From: a virus
Taxonomy: Duplodnaviria; Heunggongvirae; Uroviricota; Caudoviricetes
DNA: 33,660 nt
IMG/VR virus record: IMGVR_UViG_2913167280_000001
Reading direction: 5' to 3' (one strand)
Shown here: positions 1 to 33,660 of the stretch, piece by piece
Numbering within the stretch: position 1 is the first letter of the stretch
How the letters are laid out: each line of letters starts with the position of its first letter
Position numbers and translations under genes: made by a program
Notes under the pieces: model-generated
The model's database searches: none
What the model saw: the letters and a program-made list of their open reading frames with translations, nothing else
Told to the model about the DNA's origin: nothing

Positions 1-132
1 AAAAGTTTGATGCTCAAAGAATTAAACTTCGTAATGAATTACGTGTTCACTCTTGAGACTTGGTATTCATTTATCGTCTTGCGACGTTAAGAATCCGTAT
101 CTTCGAGTGCCCACACAGATTGTCTGATAAAT

Positions 133-145
133 TGTTAAAGAGCAG
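133..145 (-). promoter_or_regulatory. rRNA operon leader boxA antitermination element
   Basis: Minus strand reads TGCTCTTTAACAA, the rrn boxA consensus, downstream of the rrn P2 promoter. The 16S gene is not in the window. Confidence 0.8.
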
Positions 146-183
146 TTGCGACGCGGCTTTCAGCTCAGCGGCGCGGGGTGTGC

Positions 184-211
184 ATAATACGCTTTCCCGC
201 TACAGAGTCAA
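184..211 (-). promoter_or_regulatory. rRNA operon promoter P2
   Basis: Minus strand has -35 TTGACT (206-211) and -10 TATTAT (184-189) with a 16-bp spacer, matching rrn P2 architecture. Confidence 0.8.
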
Positions 212-301
212 GCATTTTTTTGCTTTTCTCTGCCGGAATTCTCAGGAGAATCCCGCTGACCCGGCGGCGTGTTTGCCGTTGTTCCGTGTCAGTGGTGGCG
301 C

Positions 302-352
302 ATTATAGGGAGTTATTCTGAGCTGACAAGAGGAAATTTAAAATAATTTATC
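302..352 (-). promoter_or_regulatory. rRNA operon promoter P1 with upstream AT-rich UP element
   Basis: Minus strand has -35 TTGTCA (324-329) and -10 TATAAT (302-307) with a 16-bp spacer, preceded by an AT-rich tract (AAATTATTTTAAATTTCCTC) typical of the rrn P1 UP element. Confidence 0.85.
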
Positions 353-407
353 GTTCGTTCAATTCTTAAGCAAAACACCTTAAAAACGACCATTTCCGGT
401 TGGAAAT

Positions 408-440
408 TAGACAAAAAGCGAGCCCCGAAGGACTCGCTTG
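408..440 (-). terminator. intrinsic terminator downstream of clpB
   Basis: GC-rich stem of about 9 bp with one mismatch, followed by a T run on the minus strand, directly after the clpB stop at 447-449. Confidence 0.6.
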
Positions 441-446
441 TCTTAT

Positions 447-3020
447 TTACTGGACGGCGACGATCCGGTCTTCATTAACTTCCAGGCGAATAACTTTACC
501 TGGAACCAATTCACCAGACAGTATTTGCTGTGCCAGCGGGTTTTCGATCTGCTGCTGGATAGCACGTTTCAGAGGACGTGCACCATAGACCGGATCGTAA
601 CCGTTCTCGCTCAGCAGTTTCAGCGCCTCGTCAGAAATGTGGATTTCATAACCACGTTCTTCCAGACGTTTGTACAGACGTTTCAACTGAATCTGCGCAA
701 TCGACGCAATGTGCTGTTCACCCAGCGGATGGAAGACCACCACCTCATCAATACGGTTAATAAACTCCGGACGGAAGTTATGGCTTACCACACCGAGCAC
801 CAGCTCTTTCATGTGCGCATAATCCAGTTCACCGAAGCGTTCCTGAATCAAATCGGAACCGAGGTTAGAGGTCATAATGACAACCGTATTACGGAAGTCG
901 ACCGTTCTCCCCTGCCCGTCAGTCAGACGCCCATCATCCAGTACCTGCAACAGAATGTTGAAGACATCCGGATGTGCTTTTTCCACTTCATCCAGCAGGA
1001 TGACGGAATACGGACGACGACGCACCGCTTCGGTCAGGTAGCCACCTTCTTCATAACCGACATATCCCGGAGGCGCACCAACCAGACGAGACACCGAGTG
1101 TTTCTCCATAAACTCGGACATATCGATACGGACCATCGCCTCGTCGCTATCAAACATAAAGTTCGCCAGCGCCTTACAAAGTTCAGTTTTACCCACACCA
1201 GTTGGGCCGAGGAACAGGAATGAACCAATCGGGCGATTTGGATCCGCCAGCCCCGCACGGCTACGACGAATAGCGTTAGATACCGCATCAACCGCTTCGT
1301 TCTGACCAATAACGCGCTGGTGCAGTTCTTGCTCCATACGCAGCAGTTTTTCGCGCTCGCTTTCCATCATGCGAGAAACCGGAATCCCCGTCCAACGCGC
1401 CAGCACTTCAGCAATTTCGGCGTCGGTCACTTTATTACGCAACAGACGCATAGTTTTGCCTTCGAGCTGCGTTGCGGCTTCCAGTTGCTTTTCCAGTTCC
1501 GGGATTTTGCCGTATTGCAGTTCAGACATCCGCGCCAGGTCACCCACACGGCGAGCCTGTTCAATGGCGATTTTCGCCTGCTCCAGTTCCGCTTTAATGG
1601 TCTGTGTACCAGAGAGCGACGCTTTCTCTGCTTTCCACTCTTCTTCTAACTCGGAGTACTGACGTTCTTTGTCGCTCAGTTCTTCGTTGAGCATATCCAG
1701 GCGTTTTTTACTGGCTTCATCAGACTCTTTCATTAACGCCTGTTGTTCCAGTTTGAGCTGGATGATACGACGATCGAGTCGGTCGAGTTCTTCCGGTTTT
1801 GAGTCAATCTGCATACGAATGCTGGATGCTGCTTCATCGATCAGGTCGATGGCTTTATCCGGCAGCTGACGGTCAGCAATGTAGCGATGAGACAATGTCG
1901 CCGCTGCAACAATTGCCGGGTCAGTAATTTGCACATGGTGGTGCAGCTCGTAACGTTCTTTCAGGCCACGCAGAATAGCAATGGTGTCCTCAACAGAAGG
2001 CTCGGCAACAAACACTTTCTGGAAGCGACGTTCCAACGCAGCATCTTTTTCGATGTACTGGCGATATTCGTCCAGCGTCGTAGCACCCACACAGTGCAGT
2101 TCACCACGCGCCAGTGCCGGTTTCAGCATATTCCCGGCGTCCATTGCGCCATCGGCTTTACCTGCGCCGACCATGGTATGTAATTCGTCGATAAACAGGA
2201 TGACGTTGCCTTCCTGTTTGGAGAGATCGTTAAGCACGCCTTTTAAACGTTCTTCAAACTCACCGCGATATTTCGCCCCAGCCACCAGCGCGCCCATATC
2301 CAGCGCCAGTACGCGGCGGCCTTTCAGCCCTTCCGGCACTTCACCATTAATAATACGCTGCGCCAGACCTTCAACGATGGCAGTTTTACCAACACCAGGC
2401 TCACCAATCAGCACCGGGTTATTTTTAGTACGACGTTGCAGTACCTGAATGGTACGGCGAATTTCTTCATCACGACCAATCACCGGATCGAGTTTGCCTT
2501 GTTCGGCTCGTTCGGTAAGGTCGATGGTGTATTTTTTCAAAGCCTGACGTTGGTCTTCAGCTCCTTGATCATTCACGCTTTCACCTCCGCGCATTTGTTC
2601 AATCGCTTGAGTAATGTTGGCGGTAGTCGCCCCTGCTGCTTTCAGGATATCGGCCAGCGTGCCGCGAGACTCAAGTGCCGCCAGAACGAACAGTTCTGAC
2701 GAGATAAAGTTATCACCACGTTTTTGCGCCAGCTTGTCGCAAAGATTAAGAACGCGCACCAGATCCTGTGATGGCTGGACATCGCCACCTGTACCTTCAA
2801 CCTGTGGTAAACGGTTTAATGCCTGAGTGATATCTGTGCGCAACTGGCCAGCATTGATGCCAGCAGATGTTAATAAAGGACTAACCGAACCCCCTTCCTG
2901 ATTCAGCAGGGCGCTCATTAAATGAAGTGGTTCGATGAATTGGTTGTCGTGCCCGAGTGCAAGTGATTGGGCATCGGCAAGAGCAAGCTGGAATTTATTA
3001 GTAAGACGATCCAGACGCAT
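447..3020 (-). CDS. clpB: ClpB disaggregase (AAA+ chaperone), 857 aa
   Basis: Translation begins [18 protein letters not shown] at the ATG at 3018-3020 with a GGAGG Shine-Dalgarno; two Walker A ([16 protein letters not shown]) nucleotide-binding domains. The ORF-track start at 3032 is a non-ATG extension. Confidence 0.97.
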
Positions 3021-3058
3021 AACTCCTCCCATAACGGATCAAAGTTGCTACTGGAGAT

Positions 3059-3087
3059 TAAATGAGGTCATCCCTCAATTATTCAAG
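3059..3087 (-). promoter_or_regulatory. sigma-32 heat-shock promoter for clpB
   Basis: Minus strand reads CTTGAA, then a 14-bp spacer, then CCTCATTTA, a close match to the sigma-32 consensus (CTTGAA / CCCCATNTA), about 40 bp upstream of the clpB ATG. Confidence 0.65.
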
Positions 3088-3149
3088 GTTATTGACCAGA
3101 TTAATGTGAAAAGAAAATCACGCGTACCGGATCGTCTTGATTCTTTAGG

Positions 3150-3881
3150 TTATATCAGCCAAATGAAACTTGCCATACGACCGGTGATCTTGTCGCGACG
3201 ATAAGAGAAGAAAGTCTCATTTTCCGTATATGTACAACGGTCGCCGCCGAAAATTTGCTCAACACCAACGCTCGCCAGACGCTGTCGGGCAAGCTGATAA
3301 ATATCCGCCAGATACTTATCACCATGCTGAATGAAAGCTGTACTCGCGTTGGCGTCTACTTCCATAAACGCCTCGCGAACCTCCGGCCCCACTTCAAACG
3401 CGCGTGGACCGATTGCCGGCCCCAACCAGGTAAGAATGTTTTCGGGCTTATCGGCAAAGCAGGAAACCGTCTCTTCCAGCACGCCTGCGCACAGTCCACG
3501 CCAGCCAGCATGGGCAGCCGCGACTTCCGTTCCTGCCCGATTGCAAAACAGCACAGGCAGGCAATCGGCTGTCATTACGGCACAAACCGTGCCGGGTGTG
3601 TTGCTATACGAGGCATCCGCCCGTTTTGAGGTATAAGGTTCGCCAGTAAGCTTAAGCACATCTTTACCGTGTACCTGCTCAAGCCAGACCGGTTTTGAAG
3701 GCAAATTACCCGCAGCAAAAAGCCGCTTGCGATTTTCCTCGACGTGCTCCGGGTTATCACCACAATGAGCACCGAGGTTGAGCGAGTCGTAGGGCGGCAA
3801 GCTCACGCCGCCGACACGGGTAGAGCTACAGGCCGCAACACCTTTTGGCAGCGGCCACTGCGGGACAATCAGCTTACTCAT
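3150..3881 (-). CDS. pgeF: YfiH/PgeF family protein, 243 aa
   Basis: Full-length ORF in the conserved clpB-yfiH-rluD context; 4-nt overlap with the rluD stop. Confidence 0.85.
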   Translation of the reverse strand: MSKLIVPQWPLPKGVAACSSTRVGGVSLPPYDSLNLGAHCGDNPEHVEENRKRLFAAGNLPSKPVWLEQVHGKDVLKLTGEPYTSKRADASYSNTPGTVCAVMTADCLPVLFCNRAGTEVAAAHAGWRGLCAGVLEETVSCFADKPENILTWLGPAIGPRAFEVGPEVREAFMEVDANASTAFIQHGDKYLADIYQLARQRLASVGVEQIFGGDRCTYTENETFFSYRRDKITGRMASFIWLI

Positions 3882-4858
3882 AACCAGTCCACTTCATCCT
3901 TATGCTCTTCGAAATCGGCGCGCATCACCTCAATCAGCTCCACCATATCTTGTGGAATAGGCGCATGCCATTCCATTTCAATGCCGGAGATCGGGTGATA
4001 AAGACGCAGCATGGTTGCATGAAGCGCCTGACGATCAAACTTACGCAGCGTGGAGATAAACGCTTCCGAAGCACCTTTTGGCGGACGCGGACGGCCACCA
4101 TAAACCGGATCGCCCACCAGCGGATGGGTTATATGGGCCATATGCACGCGGATCTGGTGCGTACGTCCAGTTTCCAGACGCAGCCGCAGACGCGTGTGCA
4201 CACGGAAGTGTTCCATAATGCGATAGTGAGTGACCGCCGGTTTGCCCATCGGATGCACCGCCATATGAGTTCGTTTGGTCGGATGGCGACTGATTGGCTC
4301 GTCCACCGTGCCACCAGCAGTCATATGACCAATTGCTACCGCTTCATACTCACGAGTAATTTCACGTCGTTGCAGAGATTCCACCAGGCGCGTCTGGGCT
4401 GGAACGGTTTTTGCCACAACCATGAGGCCAGTGGTGTCTTTATCCAGACGATGGACAATACCCGCACGCGGTACATCGGCAATGGGCGGATAGTAATGAA
4501 GCAACGCATTCAATACCGTGCCATCCGGGTTACCCGCGCCAGGATGTACCACCAGGTCGCGCGGTTTATTAATGACGATAATGTCTTCATCTTCATAGAC
4601 GATATCCAGCGGGATATCCTGCGGTTCAAAACGCGCTTCTTCTTCAATCTCGGCGTTGATGGCCACCAGCTCGCCACCTAATACTTTTTCTTTCGGCTTA
4701 TCACAAACTTTGCCGTTAACCAGCACGCGCTGGTTGAGGATCCATTCTTTTATTCGCGAACGTGAATAATCCGGGAACATTTCGGCTAAAGCCTGATCTA
4801 AGCGTTGACCGAGTTGGTTTTCGGACACTGTTGCAGTGAGTTCTACTCGTTGTGCCAT
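3878..4858 (-). CDS. rluD: 23S rRNA pseudouridine synthase RluD, 326 aa
   Basis: RluA-family catalytic motif HRLDKDTTG preceded by an S4-like N-terminal region; divergent from bamD as in E. coli. Confidence 0.93.
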   Translation of the reverse strand: MAQRVELTATVSENQLGQRLDQALAEMFPDYSRSRIKEWILNQRVLVNGKVCDKPKEKVLGGELVAINAEIEEEARFEPQDIPLDIVYEDEDIIVINKPRDLVVHPGAGNPDGTVLNALLHYYPPIADVPRAGIVHRLDKDTTGLMVVAKTVPAQTRLVESLQRREITREYEAVAIGHMTAGGTVDEPISRHPTKRTHMAVHPMGKPAVTHYRIMEHFRVHTRLRLRLETGRTHQIRVHMAHITHPLVGDPVYGGRPRPPKGASEAFISTLRKFDRQALHATMLRLYHPISGIEMEWHAPIPQDMVELIEVMRADFEEHKDEVDWL

Positions 4859-4992
4859 ATATACTGCTTCTTCGTTTATCGTTGGGGTTTTACGGCTTTG
4901 CCGTTTAATATAGTGTGCTATTGTAGCTGGTCTTAACCGGGAGCAGGAACAGAGAATCTCCCGTATTACATTTTGAGGAAAGTCAAAACGTC

Positions 4993-5730
4993 ATGACGCG
5001 CATGAAATATCTGGTGGCAGCCGCCACACTAAGCCTGTTTTTGGCGGGTTGCTCGGGGTCAAAGGAAGAAGTACCTGATAATCCGCCAAATGAAATTTAC
5101 GCGACTGCACAACAAAAGCTGCAGGACGGTAACTGGAGACAGGCAATAACGCAACTGGAAGCGTTAGATAATCGCTATCCGTTTGGTCCGTATTCGCAGC
5201 AGGTGCAGCTGGATCTCATCTACGCCTACTATAAAAACGCCGATCTGCCGTTAGCACAGGCTGCCATCGATCGTTTTATTCGCCTCAACCCGACCCATCC
5301 GAATATCGATTATGTCATGTACATGCGTGGCCTGACCAATATGGCGCTGGATGACAGTGCGCTGCAAGGGTTCTTTGGCGTTGACCGTAGCGATCGCGAT
5401 CCTCAACATGCTCGAGCTGCGTTTAGTGACTTTTCCAAACTGGTGCGCGGCTATCCAAACAGCCAGTACACCACTGATGCAACCAAACGTCTGGTGTTCC
5501 TGAAAGATCGTCTGGCGAAATATGAATACTCCGTTGCAGAGTACTACACCGAACGTGGCGCATGGGTTGCCGTCGTCAACCGCGTCGAAGGCATGCTGCG
5601 CGACTACCCGGATACCCAGGCTACGCGTGATGCGCTGCCGCTGATGGAAAATGCTTACCGCCAGATGCAGATGAACGCTCAGGCTGAAAAAGTCGCGAAA
5701 ATTATTGCCGCTAACAGCAGCAACACTTAA
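4993..5730 (+). CDS. bamD: outer membrane protein assembly factor BamD (lipoprotein), 245 aa
   Basis: Signal peptide ending in a lipobox (LFLAGCSG); full-length match to remembered E. coli BamD. Confidence 0.95.
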
Positions 5731-5748
5731 CAGGTGTGATATACGCAA

Positions 5749-5777
5749 AACGGCAGCCCTGGAGCTGTCGTTTTTTT
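5749..5777 (+). terminator. intrinsic terminator after bamD
   Basis: Stem AACGGCAGC / GCTGTCGTT followed by a run of 7 T. Confidence 0.7.
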
Positions 5778-5946
5778 ATTCGATTTGAACGCTAACTAAA
5801 GCGATTCAGTCGCGACTGATCCTATCAAATATGGCTCGCTTTGAGACATTCCTCAAGTAAAAAAACACCTCTTCCTGCGATTTCTCACAAAAAAACTTCG
5901 TTGACAAAAAGTGACAAAATTATGAGATTTTCATCACACATTTTGA

Positions 5947-6342
<396 letters not shown>

Positions 6343-6365: not shown

Positions 6366-6389
6366 AACGCGCCTTCGGGCGCGTTTTTT
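6366..6389 (+). terminator. intrinsic terminator after raiA
   Basis: Perfect 8-bp stem AACGCGCC / GGCGCGTT with a TTCG loop and a T run. Confidence 0.85.
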
Positions 6390-6465
6390 GTAAAGCTAAC
6401 AAATTGTTTCTATTAGCTTATTTCTTATAAACATCCACAAACTGTCCACATCAGTAATGATATAC

Positions 6466-6494: not shown

Positions 6495-7301
6495 TTATGT
6501 AGCCGAAATGGTTGTGGTGATGGTCCCCCGAAGCCGCTGCGCAGCTACCTCAAAATAATGATCACTGGTTTCTATACCAATAAATTTTCGCCCTGCTTTC
6601 AGTGCAGCCACACCCGTTGTCCCTGACCCCATAAAAGGATCAAGGACTGTTCCGCCACTATTCGCAGTTCTGACCAGTTCTGCCATAAGTTCTTCTGGTT
6701 TTCCGGTCGGGTGCATTTTCTTTGATGGGATAACCGGGAACGTCATGCAGCCGTCGAACGGTCCCGAAGGCGATTTATCTAAATGGCCTTTACTGCCCCA
6801 GACGATGTATTCGCACTGATGCCGGAAATACCCCGTATGGGGTGTTCGTGACCCCCTTCCTTTGTTCCACGCAATGATGCCGCGCCATGTGAAACCACTG
6901 GCCTGAAATGCATCAGTTAAAGCTGGCAGTTGTCGCCAGTCAGTAAATACCAGGGCATAACCGCCCGGCCTGACTGCGCGGTGTGCCTGTGCCATCCATA
7001 ATTGTGTCCAGTAAGCCCACGAACGGGCATCCATGTTTTCACCCGCAAACCCATCAAAGCGATGAAGGCTCTCGCCGTTCAGATATTTTGCGTGGCTGCC
7101 CTGGTTGGTGCGTCCGGCCTTGTGTGTCGCGCCCGAACTGTAAGGCGGGTCAGTGATTAAGGCATCAATACTTTCTGGCTCAATCAGCGGCAATATTTCC
7201 AGCGCATTCCCACGACAGAGCGTGGCATTGTCAGTCTGATAAACCTTAGTGTGTTCCGGTGTATGTGCTGGTTGGTGCTGGATTGTGATCCCCACGGTCA
7301 T
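6495..7301 (-). CDS. beta-class DNA methyltransferase (N6-adenine or N4-cytosine), 268 aa
   Basis: DPPY catalytic motif at residues 51-54 lies N-terminal to the AdoMet-binding motif DPFMGSGTT (beta-class order). ATG at 7299-7301 with a GAGGAG Shine-Dalgarno. Confidence 0.85.
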   Translation of the reverse strand: MTVGITIQHQPAHTPEHTKVYQTDNATLCRGNALEILPLIEPESIDALITDPPYSSGATHKAGRTNQGSHAKYLNGESLHRFDGFAGENMDARSWAYWTQLWMAQAHRAVRPGGYALVFTDWRQLPALTDAFQASGFTWRGIIAWNKGRGSRTPHTGYFRHQCEYIVWGSKGHLDKSPSGPFDGCMTFPVIPSKKMHPTGKPEELMAELVRTANSGGTVLDPFMGSGTTGVAALKAGRKFIGIETSDHYFEVAAQRLRGTITTTISAT

Positions 7302-7443
7302 AACTCCTCATGTGTGTGGGGTGCTCGATGGCTCTCGTTATCTGGTTAAGTGTTTTGCAGCGCGGACATTTTATTTCAATGTAGTGAAATGAGGCGCGGG
7401 CAAGTAGTTTGTTGCAATTTTTGCATCGTACATTTTGCGTCAT
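7246..7443 (-). CDS. com: Com-like zinc-finger protein (Mu com family), about 65 aa
   Basis: Sequence MTQNVRCKNCNKLL...IEIKCPRCK carries the Cys4 pattern remembered from Mu Com (RCKNCNKLL...IEIRCPRCK). It overlaps the first 56 nt of the downstream methyltransferase gene. ATG at 7441-7443; the track start at 7452 is GTG. Confidence 0.75.
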   Translation of the reverse strand: MTQNVRCKNCNKLLARASFHYIEIKCPRCKTLNQITRAIEHPTHMRSYDRGDHNPAPTSTYTGTH

Positions 7444-7488
7444 TTGCGGCACCTCTTGTGTGGTTACTGCTGCCGATATGATAACAAA

Positions 7489-7526
7489 TTGATCGCTTTT
7501 ATCGATCGGTTTTATATTATCGATCT
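7489..7526. promoter_or_regulatory. cluster of three GATC (Dam) sites upstream of com
   Basis: GATC at 7491, 7504 and 7522, within 35 bp and 48-82 bp upstream of the com ATG, in the divergent intergenic region. Confidence 0.6.
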
Positions 7527-7982
7527 GTGTTTTCTATTTTGTTCATGGGGCTGTTTGGCCTCACTTGTGCTGTAGTTTTAATGCGGAGGCTTCAAGTGCA
7601 ATATTTAAAGGGAACACCATTACATCAGTCCCGATTTGCAAGTGTCAGGATTACATGTCCTTCAGAGTTTTCCTCTTCAATAGAGGAGTATTTTCAAAAT
7701 AATGGATTTGATATAGGTCGTGTGACTTGCTTCTCTGCGAATGCACCCGATATGCTTAGTGTTATGTTCGAATTGCTCTCACGGGCGAAAAAATTTGCAG
7801 GGGTTATTATGGGGTTGTTAAACAGGAATGATGTTGAAGTTGAGCTACACCTTTGTACCAGAGATGATGAGCCTAAAACTGCAAAGCTCAAATTAAGAAA
7901 CCTCAAAGATGTTGATGCGTGTGAGCGCCTGATTGATAAACTGGCTACTGTGGTAATAACGTCAAAGAAAAATGAAGAATAA
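7527..7982 (+). CDS. hypothetical protein, AT-rich accessory gene (start uncertain)
   Basis: ORF clearly lower in GC than its flanks, divergent from com. The track start is GTG; a GTG at 7596 preceded by GGAGG is another candidate start. No recognisable motif. Confidence 0.5.
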   Translation: MFSILFMGLFGLTCAVVLMRRLQVQYLKGTPLHQSRFASVRITCPSEFSSSIEEYFQNNGFDIGRVTCFSANAPDMLSVMFELLSRAKKFAGVIMGLLNRNDVEVELHLCTRDDEPKTAKLKLRNLKDVDACERLIDKLATVVITSKKNEE

Positions 7983-8014
7983 TCGGTAAGCCAACCACCC
8001 TCTCTGGAAATAAA

Positions 8015-8043
8015 AAGCCCGCGACTAATCCTGCGGGCTTTTT
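8015..8043. terminator. bidirectional intrinsic terminator
   Basis: Perfect 8-bp stem AAGCCCGC / GCGGGCTT flanked by an A5 run upstream and a T5 run downstream, 30 nt after the stop of the 7527-7982 ORF. Confidence 0.75.
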
Positions 8044-8536
8044 GCATTCAGGTTTGCGAGATAGGGTGCCTTATCGACCTTAACCCTGGCAACCGATTGA
8101 CGGGGGATTGCTCCCCCGTCGCGGTTTCCTTACTGCTTACACTGTAAGAACGCCGCAAACTCCGCTCCCCAGAAGCTCATCCGTATCTCACACAGCGAAC
8201 CGTGTAGCATCCAGATGATGAGGATTGCCGTCACGCAGAACGTGATGGCTATAAGCGATTTTTGCGACATAGCACTTGCTCCTTTTTTTGCAAAGGCGCT
8301 AAGCTCTTGCCCGCTTATTGATTACGTTGTGAAACGCCCAGAGTTGAACATAAGGTTTAGTTGGGCCTTTTTACATCTGGCCTTCGTGTTTGCTGTCCAG
8401 CCATCAGTCGAAAGGCGTCCGCGTGAATTCTAGCCTGCTTTTTTTTCTTGCTTCAATACGTTGACTAATTTCAACACTCTGTTGTGCATATCCTGAACGC
8501 AGACATTATTCAGTCACGCATTTGATACATGCTTCC

Positions 8537-8561
8537 GCCGGCGTTCGCGCCGGTTTTTTTT
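8537..8561 (+). terminator. orphan intrinsic terminator inside an ORF-poor region
   Basis: GC stem CCGGCG / CGCCGG followed by 8 T; no convincing protein-coding gene upstream. Confidence 0.55.
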
Positions 8562-8941
8562 CGTCCTGTTGTTGCGTAGATCGTCATGTGCGATCGAGGC
8601 GCGGCATTGATCCTTTTTTCAGTTTAATTTCGACTCTCAATTTTACGCAGGCCGCGCCGCGTCTGGCTTCGTTGTTTGACGATTTTTCTATGCGATCCTT
8701 TCGCGATCGTGTCTCGCCCCACGCAAAGCATGAAAACTCTTTTAATATCATGCGGTTTCGTTGACCCCGCCATTTATGGGATCGTAAAAAACTCTCTGAA
8801 AACTGAAAAAAATTTCAAAGCGTGAAATTTCAGATCTTCGCTTTTCCCTCAGTTGCTGCGCGGGCTGGCTGTCATTTTTGCACGGCAGAAAACTGAAAAA
8901 CTGTTTCGACACAAAACCCGCGGGTTGGAGGGGGTAGCGCG

Positions 8942-9102: not shown

Positions 9103-10800
9103 TCAGGCGATAAGGTCACCGTATTTTTCGCGCAGGCTCGTAGCCTGTTTGGCGTCTGCGGCAAGTTCGCTGCTGTTTGTTGGTGCGCCGGTGTTGCTGT
9201 GGGTGTGGTTTGCAGTGTGTGTGGCCAGCAACTGAACCAGATCCAGAATATCAATCAACAACGTCAGCAGATTAAGTCCGGATTTTTCCCGTGAGCCACC
9301 GCGACCAATAAATACTGTCGGGGCTGTAAACTCCAGACCGCCGTCCGCCCGGCATGTTCTGCGGCCTCCCACGTTTTCAGTAAGGTCGCGCTCAATCGTG
9401 GATGTCGCCCCTTTGAGTTTAGTCAGCAAATCCTGCGCTACCATCTGGATATGCTCACCGGCTGCGATCGCATAATGACCAGTAGTAATGTGTTCTGTCT
9501 GGCCTGTCATCAGCTTGCTGGTTCCCAGAACGCTGGTTATGTCGTTTGCCTGTACTGTTGTTGTTCTGGTTGTTGTTGTGCGTTCTTCCTGATCGCTGTT
9601 AATGGTTCGCCTGGCTGAATGCTCCCTGATTTGCTGATCGGTTTCTCTGTGCCAGCTTCCGTCAGTCGTGACACGCTGAAACACTTCTGCGCGCTGTTGC
9701 TGCAGCTGTTCGCCGGGCTTTACATCAGGCAGGTTATGGCCAGCGGGTAAGATTTGCCTGATGACAGGTTTATCCGGTCGTCCTTCAATGTTGGATATTT
9801 CCACGATGGTGCCAGCCGGCGGGTAGGCAAAACATCCCGCCTCACTGCCAGCCATGGGGACGGGGAGCGGTACTGCCGGGTAAACGGGCGTATCGCTTTT
9901 ATCGTTGCCGTTCTCATCAAGCAACTGCACATCGACGGCGTAGCGTGGGCGGAAACTGTCGGCCACATCGCCCAGGGTGGCGGGCTCCGTTGGTGCAATG
10001 ACGCGCGCCAGCCGGGTATGTAGCGTACCGCTGGCCAGTTCCGGGAACTGTGTTTCCATTTGTCTGCGTAATGGTGATTTGGAAACAGGGCTGCCCGTGG
10101 CGGTAAGGCGCTCCCATGTCAGGGTCATTTTCTCGTTGTTGAGGGCTACACGGGTAATGCGCCCGGCTGGAAGGTTCACGCCCGGTCGCACAGTTTCCAT
10201 AAACATGATGTCGATGCTGTTTCCGCCGCTTTGCCCGAGTGTGTACTGTTGCGGAATATCCGGCATTGTAATGCTGGCAAATCGTGAATCAGCTGCACTT
10301 CCCACAAATACAGAACCGTCCGGCATAGGGTGCCAGACGTAATCGTTGATACTGAATGCTCGCCCCAGTTGGCTGAGCAGCTGTGCTCCGCTGCCGCTGT
10401 GGGTGATGTAGGGAGTTGGTATACTGGCATAATCCGCATCCGGAGTGATAAAAACGATACCGCTTTGTCGCCCCAGATTATCGAGTACCCCCCGCAACGT
10501 CGGGTGTTGCATGGAGCAAGGGAAATCAAAATCCAGCACAGCAGCCGCTTCACGAATAAAAAGGCGACGTGAGCCATTTTCAGCAGGTTGATCGCGCTCA
10601 ATGTAGCCGGAGAAATAGCGCCATGCTTCACCGTCACGGCCGAGATCAATTTGTACCATTGCGCCGGCAAGGCTGTGTTCGGGTGACAGATTGTTAACAG
10701 AAATGAAGCCACGACCGGCAGCATTCAGGGTAAGAACAAGGCTTATATCGGCAATTTCCACCCATTCGCCATTAATCATGCAGCGTTGTATCAATTTCAT
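9103..10800 (-). CDS. tail spike protein with a gpV/gp5-type OB-fold domain and an N-terminal extension (possible hub-spike fusion), 565 aa
   Basis: Residues about 306-350 (PVPMAGSEAGCFAYPPAGTIVEISNIEGRPDKPVIRQIL) resemble the conserved spike OB-fold motif; C-terminal HTANHTHS resembles the histidine tip motif of P2 gpV. Last gene of the tail operon, ATGA-coupled to the upstream gene. Confidence 0.6.
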   Translation of the reverse strand: MKLIQRCMINGEWVEIADISLVLTLNAAGRGFISVNNLSPEHSLAGAMVQIDLGRDGEAWRYFSGYIERDQPAENGSRRLFIREAAAVLDFDFPCSMQHPTLRGVLDNLGRQSGIVFITPDADYASIPTPYITHSGSGAQLLSQLGRAFSINDYVWHPMPDGSVFVGSAADSRFASITMPDIPQQYTLGQSGGNSIDIMFMETVRPGVNLPAGRITRVALNNEKMTLTWERLTATGSPVSKSPLRRQMETQFPELASGTLHTRLARVIAPTEPATLGDVADSFRPRYAVDVQLLDENGNDKSDTPVYPAVPLPVPMAGSEAGCFAYPPAGTIVEISNIEGRPDKPVIRQILPAGHNLPDVKPGEQLQQQRAEVFQRVTTDGSWHRETDQQIREHSARRTINSDQEERTTTTRTTTVQANDITSVLGTSKLMTGQTEHITTGHYAIAAGEHIQMVAQDLLTKLKGATSTIERDLTENVGGRRTCRADGGLEFTAPTVFIGRGGSREKSGLNLLTLLIDILDLVQLLATHTANHTHSNTGAPTNSSELAADAKQATSLREKYGDLIA

Positions 10801-28727: not shown

Positions 28728-30515
28728 ATGGCGTATTCTGATGAGGTGATTGCTGCTGCAAAATCGCTCTATCTGAAAAGGCACACACCAAAAGAAATAC
28801 AAAAGAAGCTCGGACTGAACAGCCCGCGAATTGTTTATTACTGGGCGACAAAGTTTGAGTGGTACACACAGCTTAATACTGAAGGCGTGGAAGATGTTAT
28901 CGCCCGTCGTCTCGCTGTACTGGCGGAGCGTGATCATAAAACGCCGGAAGAACACGATGAACTCGATCGCCTGATTGGCCATCACGTCAAACTGATGTCG
29001 GTCAGGAACAAGCACACGGAACGAATGGCCGAGATTGAACGAATGGGAGCGGATATTCCCCAATCTGGTCGTTATGGAAAAGAAGAACGCGGAGAAAAAG
29101 GTGCAGGTAAGAAAGAGCGCCCCCGCAAAGCTAATGACGTTTCCGGACTGACTGCTGAAAGTTTTGAGCCGTTTACGAAAAAGTTGTTTACTTACCAGTT
29201 GCTCCTGCGTGAAAACAAATTCCGCCGTGTACGCAACCTGCTTAAATCCCGCCAGATTGGGGCGACGTATTACTTCGCGTTTGAGGCATTTGAAGATGCA
29301 GTATTAACAGGCGACACACAGATATTTTTATCGGCATCAAAACGTCAGGCCGAAGTGTTCCGTACTTATATTGTAAAAATTGCACAAACAGAGTTTGGCA
29401 TTCCCATTAAAGGCAATCCGGTTAAGTTAAGTAATCTGGCTGAACTGTATTTTCTGGCGACCAACAGTAACACAGCGCAGTCAAACAGCGGCCACCTGTA
29501 TATTGATGAATACCTGTGGATCCCCGGTTTTCGCCGTCTCAATGAAGTGGCGTCAGGGATGGCCACCCATAAACACTGGCGCATTACCTATTTCTCCACG
29601 CCGTCATCCAAAACACACCAGGGTTACCCGTTCTGGTCTGGCGATGAATGGCGCAAAGGCGATCCGAAACGAAAAGGGGTTGAGTTTCCGTCCTTTGATG
29701 AGCTGCGCGATGGTGGGCGTGAATGTCCGGATGGTCAGTGGCGCTATGTGGTTACGCTGGAAGATGCCATTGCCGGCGGCTTTAACCTTGCTGACATCAA
29801 CGAGCTGCGCGAGCGATACAACGAAACAGCGTTCAATATGCTGTTTATGTGTGTGTTTGTGGATGACAAAGAGAGCGTCTTTAAATTTGATGATCTTGTG
29901 CGTTGTGGTGTTGATGTCAGTACGTGGGAGGATTTTCACCCGGAAGAGTCCATGCCATTTGGTAACCGTGAGGTTTGGGGCGGCTTTGACCCTGCGCGCT
30001 CCGGCGATAACGCCACATTTGTAGTGCTGGCACCGCCGCTGGTTGCGGCAGAACGATTCCGCGTGCTGGAAAAACACCACTGGCGCAGCATGTCATTCCA
30101 GTTTATGGCAGAGCGTATACGCAGCATTAAAGCACGCTATAACATGACGTTTATCGGCATTGACGTCACCGGTCTTGGCTACGGTGTCTTTGAGCTGGTT
30201 CAGGGATTTGCCCGCCGTGAAACAGTGGCCATTCATTACAGCGTGGAATCCAAAAACCGCCTGGTGATGAAGATGCTGGATCTGATTTACGCCAACCGTA
30301 TTGAGTGGGATGAAGAAGCCACGGATATTCCGGCATCGTTCCTGGCCATTCGTCAGGAATCCACCAACAGCGGCAATAAAGTCACTTTCACCGCCGAACG
30401 TAGCGAAGAAACCGGGCACGCTGACATCTTCTTTGCCATAGCTCATGCCGCAAGTAATGAACCCCTGAACTATAAGCACAAGCGCAAATCAACATGGATC
30501 CTGTCAGATGAGTAA
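28728..30515 (+). CDS. terminase large (ATPase) subunit, P2 gpP-like, 595 aa
   Basis: N-terminal region typical of gpP-family terminases; Walker B-like LYIDEY; AGGTGAGG Shine-Dalgarno; stop overlaps the portal gene start. Confidence 0.85.
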   Translation: MAYSDEVIAAAKSLYLKRHTPKEIQKKLGLNSPRIVYYWATKFEWYTQLNTEGVEDVIARRLAVLAERDHKTPEEHDELDRLIGHHVKLMSVRNKHTERMAEIERMGADIPQSGRYGKEERGEKGAGKKERPRKANDVSGLTAESFEPFTKKLFTYQLLLRENKFRRVRNLLKSRQIGATYYFAFEAFEDAVLTGDTQIFLSASKRQAEVFRTYIVKIAQTEFGIPIKGNPVKLSNLAELYFLATNSNTAQSNSGHLYIDEYLWIPGFRRLNEVASGMATHKHWRITYFSTPSSKTHQGYPFWSGDEWRKGDPKRKGVEFPSFDELRDGGRECPDGQWRYVVTLEDAIAGGFNLADINELRERYNETAFNMLFMCVFVDDKESVFKFDDLVRCGVDVSTWEDFHPEESMPFGNREVWGGFDPARSGDNATFVVLAPPLVAAERFRVLEKHHWRSMSFQFMAERIRSIKARYNMTFIGIDVTGLGYGVFELVQGFARRETVAIHYSVESKNRLVMKMLDLIYANRIEWDEEATDIPASFLAIRQESTNSGNKVTFTAERSEETGHADIFFAIAHAASNEPLNYKHKRKSTWILSDE

Positions 30516-31542
30516 AAAGAAAAAATACCCCGTGTTACACGATGGCGTGGCAAAAAAAACAGCCAGCAAAATGACTTTTATTGAATTTGGTGACCCGGAA
30601 CCGGTCGCTGCATGGGGCTGTTATTACGGCTCGCTCTGGGATGGCTATAACGGCTGGTACACGCCGCCCATTGAGCGCATGGATCTCGCCATGTTGTCCA
30701 ATATCGCACCGTATCACGGCGCGGTATTGCGTGCGCGCGTCAATATGATCATGCAGGGTTTTCGGGGTGGTGGTGGTATGACACACGCCGCCATGGCGGC
30801 AGCAGTAACCAATCTGCTGATATTCGGGGATATGGGGTTGCTTAAAGTGCGCAATGGCTTCGGTCGGGTGGTGCGCCTGCATACGTTACCTTCTCTGTAC
30901 CTGCGGCGTAACAACGAGGGTGGCACGGTGATTGTGCAGGCAGCACTGGAAGATCTCGTTTATCAGCCAGGCGAAGTGGTGTTCGTAGCCATTTATGACC
31001 CGCAACAGCAGGTTTACGGTGTCCCGGATTATATTCACGGGATGGAATCCGCCATGCTGAATGTGGATGCCACCCGCTTTCGCCGCAAGTATTACAAGAA
31101 CGGCGCACATCTTGGTTATATCCTGTATTCCACTGACCCGGACATGGATCCCGAGCTCGAGGCGGAATTCCGTAAAAAGATAGAGGCGTCAAAAGGGGCG
31201 GGCAATTTTAAATCCATGTTTATCAATATACCGGGCGGAGACAAAGAAGGTGTTAAGGTGATCCCTATCGGGGATTCAGGTACAAAAGATGAGTTCCTGA
31301 ATATAAAAACCATCAGTGCCCAGGATCAGCTCGTTGCGCACCGTTTCCCACCCGGACTTGCCGGCATCATTCCCGCAAATACGGCCGGGCTTGGTGACCC
31401 ACTGAAATCCCGCGAGGCATATTACAGGGATGAGGTTATCCCGATGCGCCGCCTGATTATGGAGGGGATCAACAGCGACCCGGATATCAGACGACTGGGG
31501 GAGGTGAAATTTATTCTTGATTTTGATGAACCCATGGAGTGA
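30508..31542 (+). CDS. portal protein, P2 gpQ-like, 344 aa
   Basis: Same length as P2 gpQ; coupled directly downstream of the terminase gene in the P-then-Q order of P2. Confidence 0.75.
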   Translation: MSKKKKYPVLHDGVAKKTASKMTFIEFGDPEPVAAWGCYYGSLWDGYNGWYTPPIERMDLAMLSNIAPYHGAVLRARVNMIMQGFRGGGGMTHAAMAAAVTNLLIFGDMGLLKVRNGFGRVVRLHTLPSLYLRRNNEGGTVIVQAALEDLVYQPGEVVFVAIYDPQQQVYGVPDYIHGMESAMLNVDATRFRRKYYKNGAHLGYILYSTDPDMDPELEAEFRKKIEASKGAGNFKSMFINIPGGDKEGVKVIPIGDSGTKDEFLNIKTISAQDQLVAHRFPPGLAGIIPANTAGLGDPLKSREAYYRDEVIPMRRLIMEGINSDPDIRRLGEVKFILDFDEPME

Positions 31543-31607
31543 TGTGCGGTATGGGGAAAGAGCGGGTAAAATCGGTGGCAGTAAAACGCTGTTCCGGGAG
31601 GTGGAAA

Positions 31608-31865
31608 ATGCGCAGACAGAAAGCGCGATGTCATTGCTGCGGTGCACATGCAGTGATTGAGAAAACAGCCTGGAAAACCGATCAGTTTGCTGATGTGTAT
31701 TACCGTTGCACCCGTCTCGAGTGCGGACATACCTGGGTGATGAATCTGACCTACTCGCACACACTGGTGCCCAGCGGGCTGGAGAATGGTGTGTTAAAGC
31801 TGTTGATTGAGCGGATGCGTCCGGAAGAAAAACAAATGGCTCTGGAGTTGTTGCAGGCCGGATAG
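31608..31865 (+). CDS. Ogr/Delta-family zinc-finger late-gene activator (putative), 85 aa
   Basis: Cys pattern C-x-C-C...C-x4-C (RCHCCGAH...YYRCTRLECGHTW) resembles Ogr/Delta; GGAGG Shine-Dalgarno before the ATG at 31608. The track ORF starts earlier at a GTG overlapping the portal gene. Confidence 0.55.
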   Translation: MRRQKARCHCCGAHAVIEKTAWKTDQFADVYYRCTRLECGHTWVMNLTYSHTLVPSGLENGVLKLLIERMRPEEKQMALELLQAG

Positions 31866-31885
31866 CTGACGCGCTTTGCTTGTCC

Positions 31886-31935
31886 AACCCGGAACGGGCG
31901 CACAAAGAATTTGCGCACCCGTTCCGGGTTTTCTT
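31886..31935 (+). terminator. long hairpin with T run after the ogr-like gene
   Basis: About 21-bp stem with two mismatches (AACCCGGAACGGGCGCACAAA / TTTGCGCACCCGTTCCGGGTT) followed by TTTTCTT; lies between the convergent ogr-like and Rrf2 genes. Confidence 0.75.
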
Positions 31936-32293
31936 ATTTAATGGCAGACAACTGATAATTTGTGTCTTCCTGCAGGCTGGTTAAAGAAATATTATCCAGT
32001 GCAGCCAGAATAACGTGCTGTGTATATAATCCGGAACATTTCATTGCCCGGACAATATCACCAACACTGTAATTTTCTTTTGTTGGGATATATCCACCAC
32101 CCGGGCCGCGTGTGGCTTTTACCAGGCTACTTTCCCGTAAATATCTGAATATTTGCTCCAGATATGACAGTGAAACGGTTTCTTTGCTTAATTGCCGGAG
32201 CGAGATTGGCTTTCCGGTGTACTGTTTCACAAATTTAATCATTACCATAACTGCAACTGATGCACGCTGGCTTCCGGAATTATCTTTCATCAT
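31934..32293 (-). CDS. Rrf2-family transcriptional regulator, about 119 aa
   Basis: Helix-turn-helix region with SLSYLEQIFRYLRESSLVKATRGPGGGY, matching the Rrf2/IscR signature; only one Cys after the HTH, so probably not an Fe-S type. Start set at the ATG at 32291-32293. Confidence 0.75.
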   Translation of the reverse strand: MMKDNSGSQRASVAVMVMIKFVKQYTGKPISLRQLSKETVSLSYLEQIFRYLRESSLVKATRGPGGGYIPTKENYSVGDIVRAMKCSGLYTQHVILAALDNISLTSLQEDTNYQLSAIK

Positions 32294-32304
32294 GATTACT
32301 TCCA

Positions 32305-32592
32305 TTAATGGCATAAATTGATGGAGCGGGTCAGTGAATAAAGAGGCAATACATTCCATCCCTTAGAGCGCCAGCTGTCTGCAACATCTTTACTTCTTGT
32401 TATCGCCGGCATTCCAATAGGATTATTTGCGTGCATCCATGCCACTGGCTCTGCTTCCAGTGATGCAAGTGCGATTTCCAGTGCGATTAACATATTGTGA
32501 TCGTCTTCATCAAGACCGAACGGGATGTCTTCGCGCCACGATTTAAACTCTGTGATTTTACGTTGTAACCATTCTTTGGTAATGGTGGACAT
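32305..32592 (-). CDS. hypothetical protein, about 95 aa
   Basis: ATG at 32590-32592 with an AGGAG Shine-Dalgarno 5 nt upstream; between the parR-like and Rrf2 genes on the same strand. No recognisable motif. Confidence 0.5.
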   Translation of the reverse strand: MSTITKEWLQRKITEFKSWREDIPFGLDEDDHNMLIALEIALASLEAEPVAWMHANNPIGMPAITRSKDVADSWRSKGWNVLPLYSLTRSINLCH

Positions 32593-32606
32593 AGTTACTC
32601 CTGTTT

Positions 32607-32921
32607 TCACTTCGGAAAAAACGCCTGAATATTCTTCTTCACCTGCTGCATATGGGGGGCGCTGTCTGCTGCTGGTTGCGCCGGTTTTTCAGGCTGTACT
32701 GGTAGCGGTGGCATCCTTATTTCGTCTTCTGACCATTCTGCCAGCGAATACGCCAACGCGGGGATGCGTTTTATAAGAGCCAGTCCGGCCAGAAAAGCCG
32801 CGCGTTGTGCGCGGCTGCGTTCGGAGGCTGGCAGGCTGTCGAGGTAACTGCACGCCTCCCGTTCGCTCTTGACGACGGCGGGCTTCAGATAGAAACTTAT
32901 CCGTCTGGTTGGTGTCGTCAT
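32607..32921 (-). CDS. parR: ParR-like partition adaptor protein, about 104 aa
   Basis: N-terminal YLDSLPASERSRAQRAAFLAGLAL resembles plasmid R1 ParR (from memory); AAGGAG Shine-Dalgarno 7 nt before the ATG at 32921, embedded in the parM 3' end. Confidence 0.65.
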   Translation of the reverse strand: MTTPTRRISFYLKPAVVKSEREACSYLDSLPASERSRAQRAAFLAGLALIKRIPALAYSLAEWSEDEIRMPPLPVQPEKPAQPAADSAPHMQQVKKNIQAFFPK

Positions 32922-32925
32922 TGAT

Positions 32926-33660
32926 TTACTCCTTGTCCATTGCGTACAGCCCATTAACCAGAGCAAACTGTGGCACCCCGTCCGCGATGAAAGTCGCATT
33001 AACTCCGCAGGCTTCGCGGATAGCGGGTGCCACAATCTCCGCTCCTCCACCTACAACCATCACCCGCCCGTAACCCGAAAAACCCGCCAGCGCGCGGATC
33101 ACGCGTTGTTTCAGTGTTTCCTCCTTTTCACGAATAACTGCCATCAGGCTGGCGTAATGCGCGTCATTGTGGATGTGCTGGCGCAACCAGGCTTCATCGT
33201 GGCGATGTTCGATAATGGTATTGGCGATGTGGTGACTGGTGCGCATACCGTTGGTGGCCATCACCGACAGCACGGCGTCGGCCATCAGAGAAACGCCTAC
33301 GTGTGGATCGCAAAACACCTGGCTGATACCTGCCAGTTGCCCCTGAACCTTTGCCACATCCAGCGTGGTTCCGCCCAAATCCACAATCAGCAGGGATTCA
33401 AACGGACTCATGTCAGCCAGTGCTTTAAAGCCAGCCGGAATGGATTCAGGCATAACCCGCACGTTACGGATAGTGAATGCCTCGCCGTTCTGGTACTCCA
33501 CCTGGCGCATAACGTTCGCTTTTTTGCGGTTGATGTTGGCCATGTCCGGCTGTGCGTTTGTGTCGAAATACTCGCTCAGTGGCAGGGTGACAACCACATC
33601 CACCTCCTGTGGCGTGATGCCTGATTTGACCAGCGCATGATGAATGGCAATGACATTCAC
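32926..33660 (-). CDS. parM: ParM/StbA-like actin-type segregation ATPase, C-terminal about 244 aa (N-terminus beyond the window edge)
   Basis: Actin-fold motifs LLIVDLGGTTLD and MVVGGGAEI, plus VMPESIPAGF, match remembered ParM of plasmid R1. The ORF is open to the window edge. Confidence 0.75.
   Translation of the reverse strand: MNVIAIHHALVKSGITPQEVDVVVTLPLSEYFDTNAQPDMANINRKKANVMRQVEYQNGEAFTIRNVRVMPESIPAGFKALADMSPFESLLIVDLGGTTLDVAKVQGQLAGISQVFCDPHVGVSLMADAVLSVMATNGMRTSHHIANTIIEHRHDEAWLRQHIHNDAHYASLMAVIREKEETLKQRVIRALAGFSGYGRVMVVGGGAEIVAPAIREACGVNATFIADGVPQFALVNGLYAMDKE

Follow-up and report, generated by a model that had tools for sequence, protein, structure and literature searches.

ParM and ParR homologs in the replication module of P88-like prophages of Escherichia coli

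The IMG/VR virus record IMGVR_UViG_2913167280_000001 (Caudoviricetes) comprises 33,660 nucleotides, here called the window, and ends within a parM gene that is followed on the minus strand by parR. Sequence similarity points to a partition pair of the type carried by plasmids R1 and pB171 (type II). We find that parM/parR is a constant component of the replication module in P88-like phages (genus Xuanwuvirus), where it directly follows a lineage-specific 940-amino-acid (aa) gpA. Both the identity of the two genes and their status as a property of this lineage we consider very nearly certain. As for what the pair does, our best explanation as a whole is that it handles phage DNA circles during lytic growth or a transient episomal stage; this comes close to an even chance of being right, a judgment driven by the mechanism it requires.

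A plasmid-type parM/parR pair downstream of gpA

Positions 1 to 6342 of the window are chromosomal (clpB-yfiH-rluD-bamD-raiA), and the remainder is an integrated P2-family prophage of E. coli, ~36 kb in size, that lies between raiA and pheL and is contiguous with these genes. The part past the window end was read from a 99.3% identical reference locus, L002 (STEC313), in which a position plus 15499 gives the corresponding window position. In its RefSeq annotation, L002 continues beyond the window with the parM N terminus, the 940-aa gpA, early genes, Cox, the C repressor, and a retained integrase, and then pheL/pheA. A second copy of the 20-bp att core is found at L002 27115-27134, beside pheL and after the integrase. 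An initial annotation, made from the sequence alone, had described a partition operon inside a P2-like prophage contiguous with the chromosome; the flanking genes and the att repeat bear out this setting, and the rightward extension it recommended recovered both an integrase and an att site. It was also right that the ParM N terminus, and with it any upstream centromere, lies beyond the window end. The leftward early/replication gene block of the prophage has its distal end here.

The 75 N-terminal ParM residues missing from the window were recovered from L002. ParM matches the Pfam families for the C-terminal domain (PF21523, E = 7e-69) and StbA_N (PF06406, E = 2e-40), and the full-length L002 protein aligns with R1 ParM (PDB 1mwk) over residues 2-316 at 47% identity (E = 1.7e-92). 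DDGST, E147, DLGGTT, and GGGAE are invariant in this alignment. These similarities argue for a true R1-type ParM, predicted to be an actin-fold ATPase with phosphate-1, phosphate-2, and adenosine motifs and the catalytic Glu/Asp. The initial annotation had made the same call from DxGGxT and GGGA motifs, which are present as DLGGTT and GGGAE. The alternative it raised, that the truncated open reading frame (ORF) encodes a different actin-fold protein such as a sugar kinase, is ruled out by the Pfam ParM domains and the full-length match to R1 ParM.

Over 69 distinct alleles, parM is under strong purifying selection (mean dN 0.004, mean dS 0.083, dN/dS 0.05, with dS up to 0.24); the same measure gives a rough dN/dS of 0.25 for the last 300 codons of gpA. 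In 86 loci the parM reading frame is intact. None of the phage-type loci found, whether in E. coli, E. albertii, Salmonella, or viral-collection contigs, has a ParM less than 97% identical, and gpA identity across the same loci ranges from 82 to 98%. The apparent gap in ParM identity from 97% to 61% is not to be over-read, because the genome-contig scan for relatives used two peptide patterns only and may have missed relatives that are 60-95% identical.

Encoded directly downstream of parM, after a 4-nt gap, ParR is predicted to be a ribbon-helix-helix adaptor. It matches Pfam Plasmid_stab_B (PF10784, E = 1.6e-23), PHROG 2515 (2.4e-44), and, weakly, pB171 ParR (PDB 2jd3, E = 0.009). The products of both parM and parR fall in PHROG families named "partition protein," and RefSeq names them ParM and plasmid-partitioning protein. 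The adaptor had thus been recognized correctly in the initial annotation but not in its extent: the 147-aa ORF at 32607-33050 overlaps parM, and the actual gene is the shorter one listed in Table 1. An N-terminal segment, MTTPTRRISFYLKP, and the C-terminal motif NIxAxFP[EK] are kept across all phage ParR alleles, even between those that are otherwise only ~52% identical. In ribbon-helix-helix proteins, this N-terminal segment is the DNA-reading beta-strand. Plasmid ParRs end in a similar tail, [KR]xN[AI]xx[LMF]F, and in R1 it is the ParR C terminus that binds ParM.

Allelic variation in parR has a sharp boundary. Alleles ~52, 66, 85, and at least 96% identical to that of the window account for 60, 8, 4, and 8 of 80 loci, respectively. 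The break falls right after codon 14-15, and in L006-L088 parR lies ~8 nt past the parM stop. The conserved block runs from the first of two repeats upstream of parM (described below) through parM to the first parR codons. Recombination at the edge of a hotspot or diversifying selection on the ParR body could account for the break.

parM/parR DNA is present in 1291 of 5426 complete E. coli genomes (~24%), some of which have two to three copies, and 1428 of the 1430 places are chromosomal. The gene order is gpA-parM-parR in every locus examined, including P88, PhiSM, and other Xuanwuvirus-type phages. The 3' kb of gpA occurs in 1355 complete E. coli genomes, compared with 1291 for parM/parR. 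Among phage records, 14 have this gpA 3' type, and these are also the 14 with parM; other P2-like phages match a short core segment of gpA only. Since the pair is constant in the lineage and linked to the gpA type, it is not cargo like the two genes that follow it, which encode a 95-aa protein and an Rrf2-like protein. The possibility that the region is a separate inserted element, entertained at the outset, likewise fails: the genes are part of the prophage and tied to gpA. The C-terminal ~245 residues of gpA (codons ~696-940, L002 18463-19200) have no Pfam domain, and the DNA encoding them is specific to the lineage that carries parM/parR. Functionally, parM/parR and the long tail of gpA may work as a single module.

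A partition system had been considered unexpected on an integrated P2-like prophage, a view that the genome counts above contradict. About one-quarter of P2-like phages carry a "putative plasmid partitioning system," for which a role in plasmid maintenance has been speculated (Rousset et al. 2022, Cell Host Microbe, PMC9122126), and the same study lists exactly this gene arrangement. The presence of parM/parR in P2-like prophages and the plasmid-maintenance idea are therefore already published, and with RefSeq, PHROGs, and the 2022 hotspot paper covering the genes, the discovery value here is small. In PhiSM, which integrates at an attB, the partition gene is merely listed as a "fitness" gene (PMC6456863). 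Our literature search found no functional study of the system. The interest lies in the function of a strongly selected R1-type actin motor in integrated prophages that have neither a plasmid replicon nor a canonical centromere.

Candidate centromere and promoter sequences upstream of parM

The gap between gpA and parM is 76 nt. Two 38-nt direct repeats, 73 bp apart (L002 18419-18456 and 18492-18529, just outside the window), straddle the gpA stop codon, one in the gap and the other within the last gpA codons. Each contains a 20-bp imperfect palindrome, CGGGATT-N4-AATCCCG, that occurs exactly twice in the prophage, both times just upstream of parM, and is kept in 55 of 55 distinct upstream sequences. 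In L032, which has an unrelated gpA C terminus, the sequence becomes homologous to the parM/parR module precisely at the first repeat and its palindrome, indicating that both repeats travel with parM/parR. The two palindromes are the best and only candidate for a centromere. A hairpin reading was set aside: the natural variants (GGGACT, AATCCT, and CAGGATT) are not compensatory, so a protein-binding site fits better than a folded structure.

Plasmid relatives, whose ParMs are ~46-52% identical, have arrays of ~11-bp iterons upstream of parM. Using a mismatch-tolerant repeat scan, we found no canonical parC iterons above shuffle level across the ~36-kb prophage; the same scan scored 6-9 just upstream of parM in four of five plasmid controls and 3 in the fifth. 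An exact k-mer cluster scan was dropped because it missed parC of the plasmid controls, and phased A-tracts upstream of parM were dropped because their spacing is irregular. A plasmid-type replication initiator is likewise missing among the 40 annotated prophage genes of L002, in which the gpA nickase is the only replication initiator. The rightward extension thus yielded no canonical parC iterons and no plasmid replication gene.

In R1, a promoter is expected upstream of parM, and in one plasmid control (L090) the iteron array flanks a consensus-like promoter. The 76-nt gap showed neither a sigma-70-like promoter nor a terminator on the coding strand; since the promoter scan is insensitive, scoring in L090 and missing an R1-type control, this result is weak evidence for co-transcription.

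Possible roles of the ParM/ParR motor

In P2 lysogens, C represses the early operon, of which A is part. With no evident promoter of their own and no terminator after gpA, parM and parR are expected to be coexpressed with the replication proteins, which would place their synthesis after infection or induction, while early genes are active. We infer this timing from the gene order and from P2. ParR would bind a minimal centromere formed by the two palindromes, its conserved C-terminal helix would capture ParM filaments, and the filaments would move or separate extrachromosomal phage circles. The outcome would be an aid to replication, packaging, or preintegration inheritance, as provided by AlpA/AlpC for prophage CGP3; maintaining a repressed prophage as a plasmid would not be the role of the pair. 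The actin-like AlpAC system of CGP3, an integrated prophage, is induced early, and efficient replication of the circular phage DNA depends on it (PMC4446434). We favor a role on lytic circles because of the early-operon position, the retained integrase, the lack of a plasmid replicon, and the near-universal chromosomal location. Such a lytic or transient-episome mechanism is tentative, and we would expect it to fail somewhat more readily than to hold.

A more specific proposal is more doubtful still, although we consider it worth stating: the ParM/ParR of P88-like phages may be a genome-handling motor with a two-palindrome centromere in the gpA 3' end, acting early in the lytic cycle and not as a plasmid-maintenance device. 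The motor would position or separate phage DNA that replicates by rolling circle or would secure inheritance of the circle before integration. If this were true, an R1-type, Gram-negative counterpart of AlpAC would be present in about one-quarter of E. coli genomes. Whether in phage replication, in establishment of lysogeny, or in transient episomal carriage, a defined role would add to what ParM-type cytomotive filaments are known to do.

Several observations weigh against the proposed motor and its centromere. Read as codons, the 38-nt repeats also look like the duplication of a coding segment (KKQTETGFTNPV / KQAKAGFQNPV) and could be a recombination scar or serve a gpA or origin function. 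Two palindromes are far below the ~10 iterons of R1 or the 24 alpS repeats of CGP3. A weak candidate promoter, TTCAGA-16-ATTAAT, may overlap the second palindrome. Furthermore, most P2-like phages have no partition motor, and P2-type rolling-circle replication is not known to need one for segregation.

The main alternative is that the pair maintains a plasmid prophage, that is, a low-copy extrachromosomal prophage, for example where no free attB is available, in a facultative phage-plasmid or a recent remnant of one. The idea is stated in PMC9122126, and the initial annotation had arrived at the same speculation in suggesting phage-plasmid ancestry or an episomal state. The ParM/ParR pair is complete, under selection, and of plasmid type, P2-like phage-plasmids exist in Arsenophonus, and a 34,461-bp circular "plasmid" (NZ_CP148288.1) is a whole P88-like genome. 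This single record, the 34-kb pZ1323PEC0009-2, is not specific evidence, however, and was discounted as a sign of an episome, because circular "plasmids" of 30-37 kb have also been deposited for other P2-like genomes that are not among the ParM/ParR DNA matches in the plasmid collection. In complete genomes the pair is chromosomal in nearly every place, and a search of these genomes for a circular form found no intact attP junction, a result that sets an upper bound only, as a circular record starting at the junction would split into two matches. The prophage keeps its integrase and has no plasmid-type replication initiator; its gpA, a product of the early lytic operon, is a rolling-circle nickase, and neither a canonical iteron parC nor an obvious promoter of its own accompanies parM. 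The claim of phage-plasmid ancestry or an episomal state is therefore unsupported, and we regard stable plasmid lysogeny as unlikely, and less likely than action on lytic circles.

A second alternative is competition, in which ParR, ParM, or the cis sites would benefit the lysogen by hindering related phages or plasmids that enter the cell, through partition incompatibility or titration. The pair lies at the gpA-gpQ site, a hotspot rich in anti-phage systems (PMC9122126), some genomes have two to three copies, and the divergent ParR alleles (~52, 66, 85, and 100%) beside a near-invariant ParM could reflect diversifying pressure. Nevertheless, the pair has no match in PADLOC, and it is lineage constant and linked to the gpA type, unlike true hotspot cargo. 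Allele-specific incompatibility is not evident, since all alleles share the same candidate sites and the same DNA-reading N-terminal strand in ParR. In addition, the nearest plasmid ParMs are only ~50% identical, and their iterons are quite different. We judge this explanation improbable. That the genes are an inert relic, what is left, in decay, of an ancestral phage-plasmid or of captured plasmid genes, would agree with the missing parC iteron array but is contradicted, and close to refuted, by the selection signal (dN/dS 0.05 with dS up to 0.24), the intact reading frames in 86 loci, the invariant catalytic residues relative to R1 ParM, and the conserved, presumably ParM-binding tail of ParR.

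Neighboring genes and related systems

Table 1. Features of the region and of the raiA-side prophage end (window coordinates)
Feature	Position	Strand	Remarks
att core copy, CCTTCGGGCGCGTTTTTTGT	6372..6391		raiA-side prophage end; identical 20-mer in L002
Portal protein (gpQ equivalent)	30508..31542	+	Far edge of the gpA-gpQ hotspot; TIGR01540 2e-68; Pfam Phage_portal
Ogr/Delta-like zinc-finger late-gene activator	31608..31865	+	Pfam PF04606 1.4e-12; PHROG 603 transcriptional regulator
Hairpin, 21-bp stem, 3-nt loop, 90% complementary	31886..31930		Inverted repeat between the convergent Rrf2-like and ogr-like genes
Rrf2-like winged-helix protein, 119 aa	31934..32293	-	Pfam Rrf2; 141 aa from alternative start 32359
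95-aa accessory phage protein, hotspot cargo	32305..32592	-	PHROG 660/60/5117, all of unknown function
parR (StbB family), 104 aa	32607..32921	-	Starts MTTPTRR; RefSeq start, conserved across loci
parM, C-terminal 244 of 319 codons plus stop	32926..33660	-	Pfam; cut by window end, continues to window-equivalent 33885

The four minus-strand genes within 31934-33660 are closely spaced, with intergenic gaps of 4, 14, and 11 nt (parM-parR-95-aa-Rrf2-like) and a Shine-Dalgarno sequence at each, and the unit is closed by a hairpin. The initial annotation had named all four products correctly (Pfam; the 95-aa protein has no Pfam match), and the tight, operon-like coupling it described is confirmed. 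Its view of the four as a single partition operon stands only in part: the genes are co-oriented and coupled, but only parM and parR are lineage constant. The pair formed by the 95-aa and Rrf2-like genes occurs in 37 of 5426 complete E. coli genomes, always in the same arrangement, and the interval from parR to the portal gene varies from 1044 to 3127 nt between related loci. These two genes are variable cargo of the gpA-gpQ hotspot and stand outside the partition system.

The 95-aa ORF had no PADLOC match. Homologs of its product are named Eaa or DUF551 domain-containing protein and belong to a large family of small prophage proteins; by sequence, the protein is related to the N-terminal module of longer Eaa/DUF551 proteins. 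The Rrf2-like protein has the N-terminal winged helix-turn-helix (HTH) of the Rrf2 type (Pfam PF02082, 50.1 bits with a cutoff of 30, profile positions 2-87 of 132). Its NCBIfam rrf2_super score (52.8 bits) is under the cutoff of 73.3, the profile match ends at 87-89 of 132, and the full Rrf2 architecture, which includes a C-terminal dimerization region, is absent, with a single Cys in 119 aa compared with the three Cys ligands of IscR/NsrR-type members. Its relatives are identical E. coli copies and one 51% homolog; the rest are generic IscR-like proteins, ~40% identical over the HTH. The 51% homolog has another neighborhood, with IstB_IS21-like and DUF977 genes, that looks like a phage early region. 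PADLOC matched none of the five genes of the region, and a defense-system assignment was rejected for all of them on this basis. Rfam and tRNA scans found nothing in the region.

The hairpin has a terminator-like match on the plus strand and, with its plus-strand T-run, is likely a terminator that closes both convergent units. On its other side, the Ogr/Delta-like gene directly follows the portal gene, co-occurs with the window-type portal in related loci, and is part of the late module, outside the partition unit. Its counterpart in the P88-like circular record NZ_CP148288.1 is found at the distal end of the late gene block, close to the attachment site.

The portal type of the window is common to only a minority of related loci. 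The late module (window ~9100-31542) includes DUF2586 and an HP1 ORF34-like baseplate protein, and the prophage as a whole is mosaic: its early/replication module is of the P88 type, its tail module is HP1-like, and its capsid is of the P2 type. Beside the HP1 ORF34-like gene, between the tail-fiber genes and the hok/com/methyltransferase end of the prophage, is a 565-aa ORF (9103-10800, minus strand) with no Pfam or PADLOC match. The raiA-side end (6495-8800) has a DNA methyltransferase gene and, as inferred from the STEC313 annotation, genes for a Com-family regulator and a Hok/Gef toxin, which are typical accessory genes. In the chromosomal flank, the RyfD sRNA (Rfam RF02768, 125 bits) is at 3001-3139 on the minus strand, upstream of clpB, an ordinary chromosomal feature.

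Among known systems, ParMRC of R1/pB171 (type II) is the one that the proteins resemble most directly. The full-length ParM shares 47% identity with R1 ParM and has all the nucleotide-binding and catalytic motifs, and the gene for a StbB-family ribbon-helix-helix ParR, with a tail like those of plasmid ParRs, is directly downstream. Unlike ParMRC, the prophage pair is chromosomal in an integrated phage and not on a plasmid, and its ParR has 104 aa, compared with ~117-145 aa in plasmids. Plasmid systems have an array of ~11-bp iterons flanking the promoter, whereas the phage genes follow gpA without an evident promoter or terminator, after a 76-nt gap with two palindromes, one of them inside gpA. 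A separate chromosomal occurrence was seen in Raoultella and Klebsiella (L103, L104, and L115), where parM at 5001-5942 encodes a protein ~46% identical to the phage ParM and has clear upstream iterons. The neighbors there are glycosyl hydrolase 4, an AraC regulator, DnaJ-like, TerC, and ScsC-like genes, with no phage or plasmid genes within 5 kb, and the locus looks like a chromosomal orphan ParMRC.

The likeness to AlpA/AlpC of prophage CGP3 (Corynebacterium glutamicum) is one of composition and proposed function: an actin-like ATPase and a DNA-binding adaptor in an integrated prophage, in a host of a different phylum. AlpA binds 24 alpS repeats in its own promoter region (PMC4446434), whereas here there are two palindromes and no clear promoter. 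The phage-plasmid possibility has its nearest parallel in paPv10 of Arsenophonus nasoniae (NZ_CP123514.1), which shares P2-type capsid, tail, gpA, Cox, and C genes and a size of ~34 kb. It differs in being a circular plasmid record with RepA and an AAA family ATPase in the place of the integrase, whereas the window prophage is chromosomal, with an integrase and no RepA. In this 33.8-kb circular plasmid (L121), an apparent P2-like phage-plasmid that also has Ogr, the genes for replication initiator protein A and the AAA family ATPase, possibly a ParA-type partition protein, are at 31562-33245. Several similar Arsenophonus plasmids of 33-36 kb were among the records listed.

Closest of all are the inducible phages P88 and PhiSM. 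The late module of the window prophage is unlike that of P88 (the portal is ~30% identical, and the baseplate protein is HP1-like), and the window prophage additionally carries the rarer Rrf2-like cargo; the partition system of P88 and PhiSM, which is also that of PMC9122126, is essentially the same as the parM/parR of the window.

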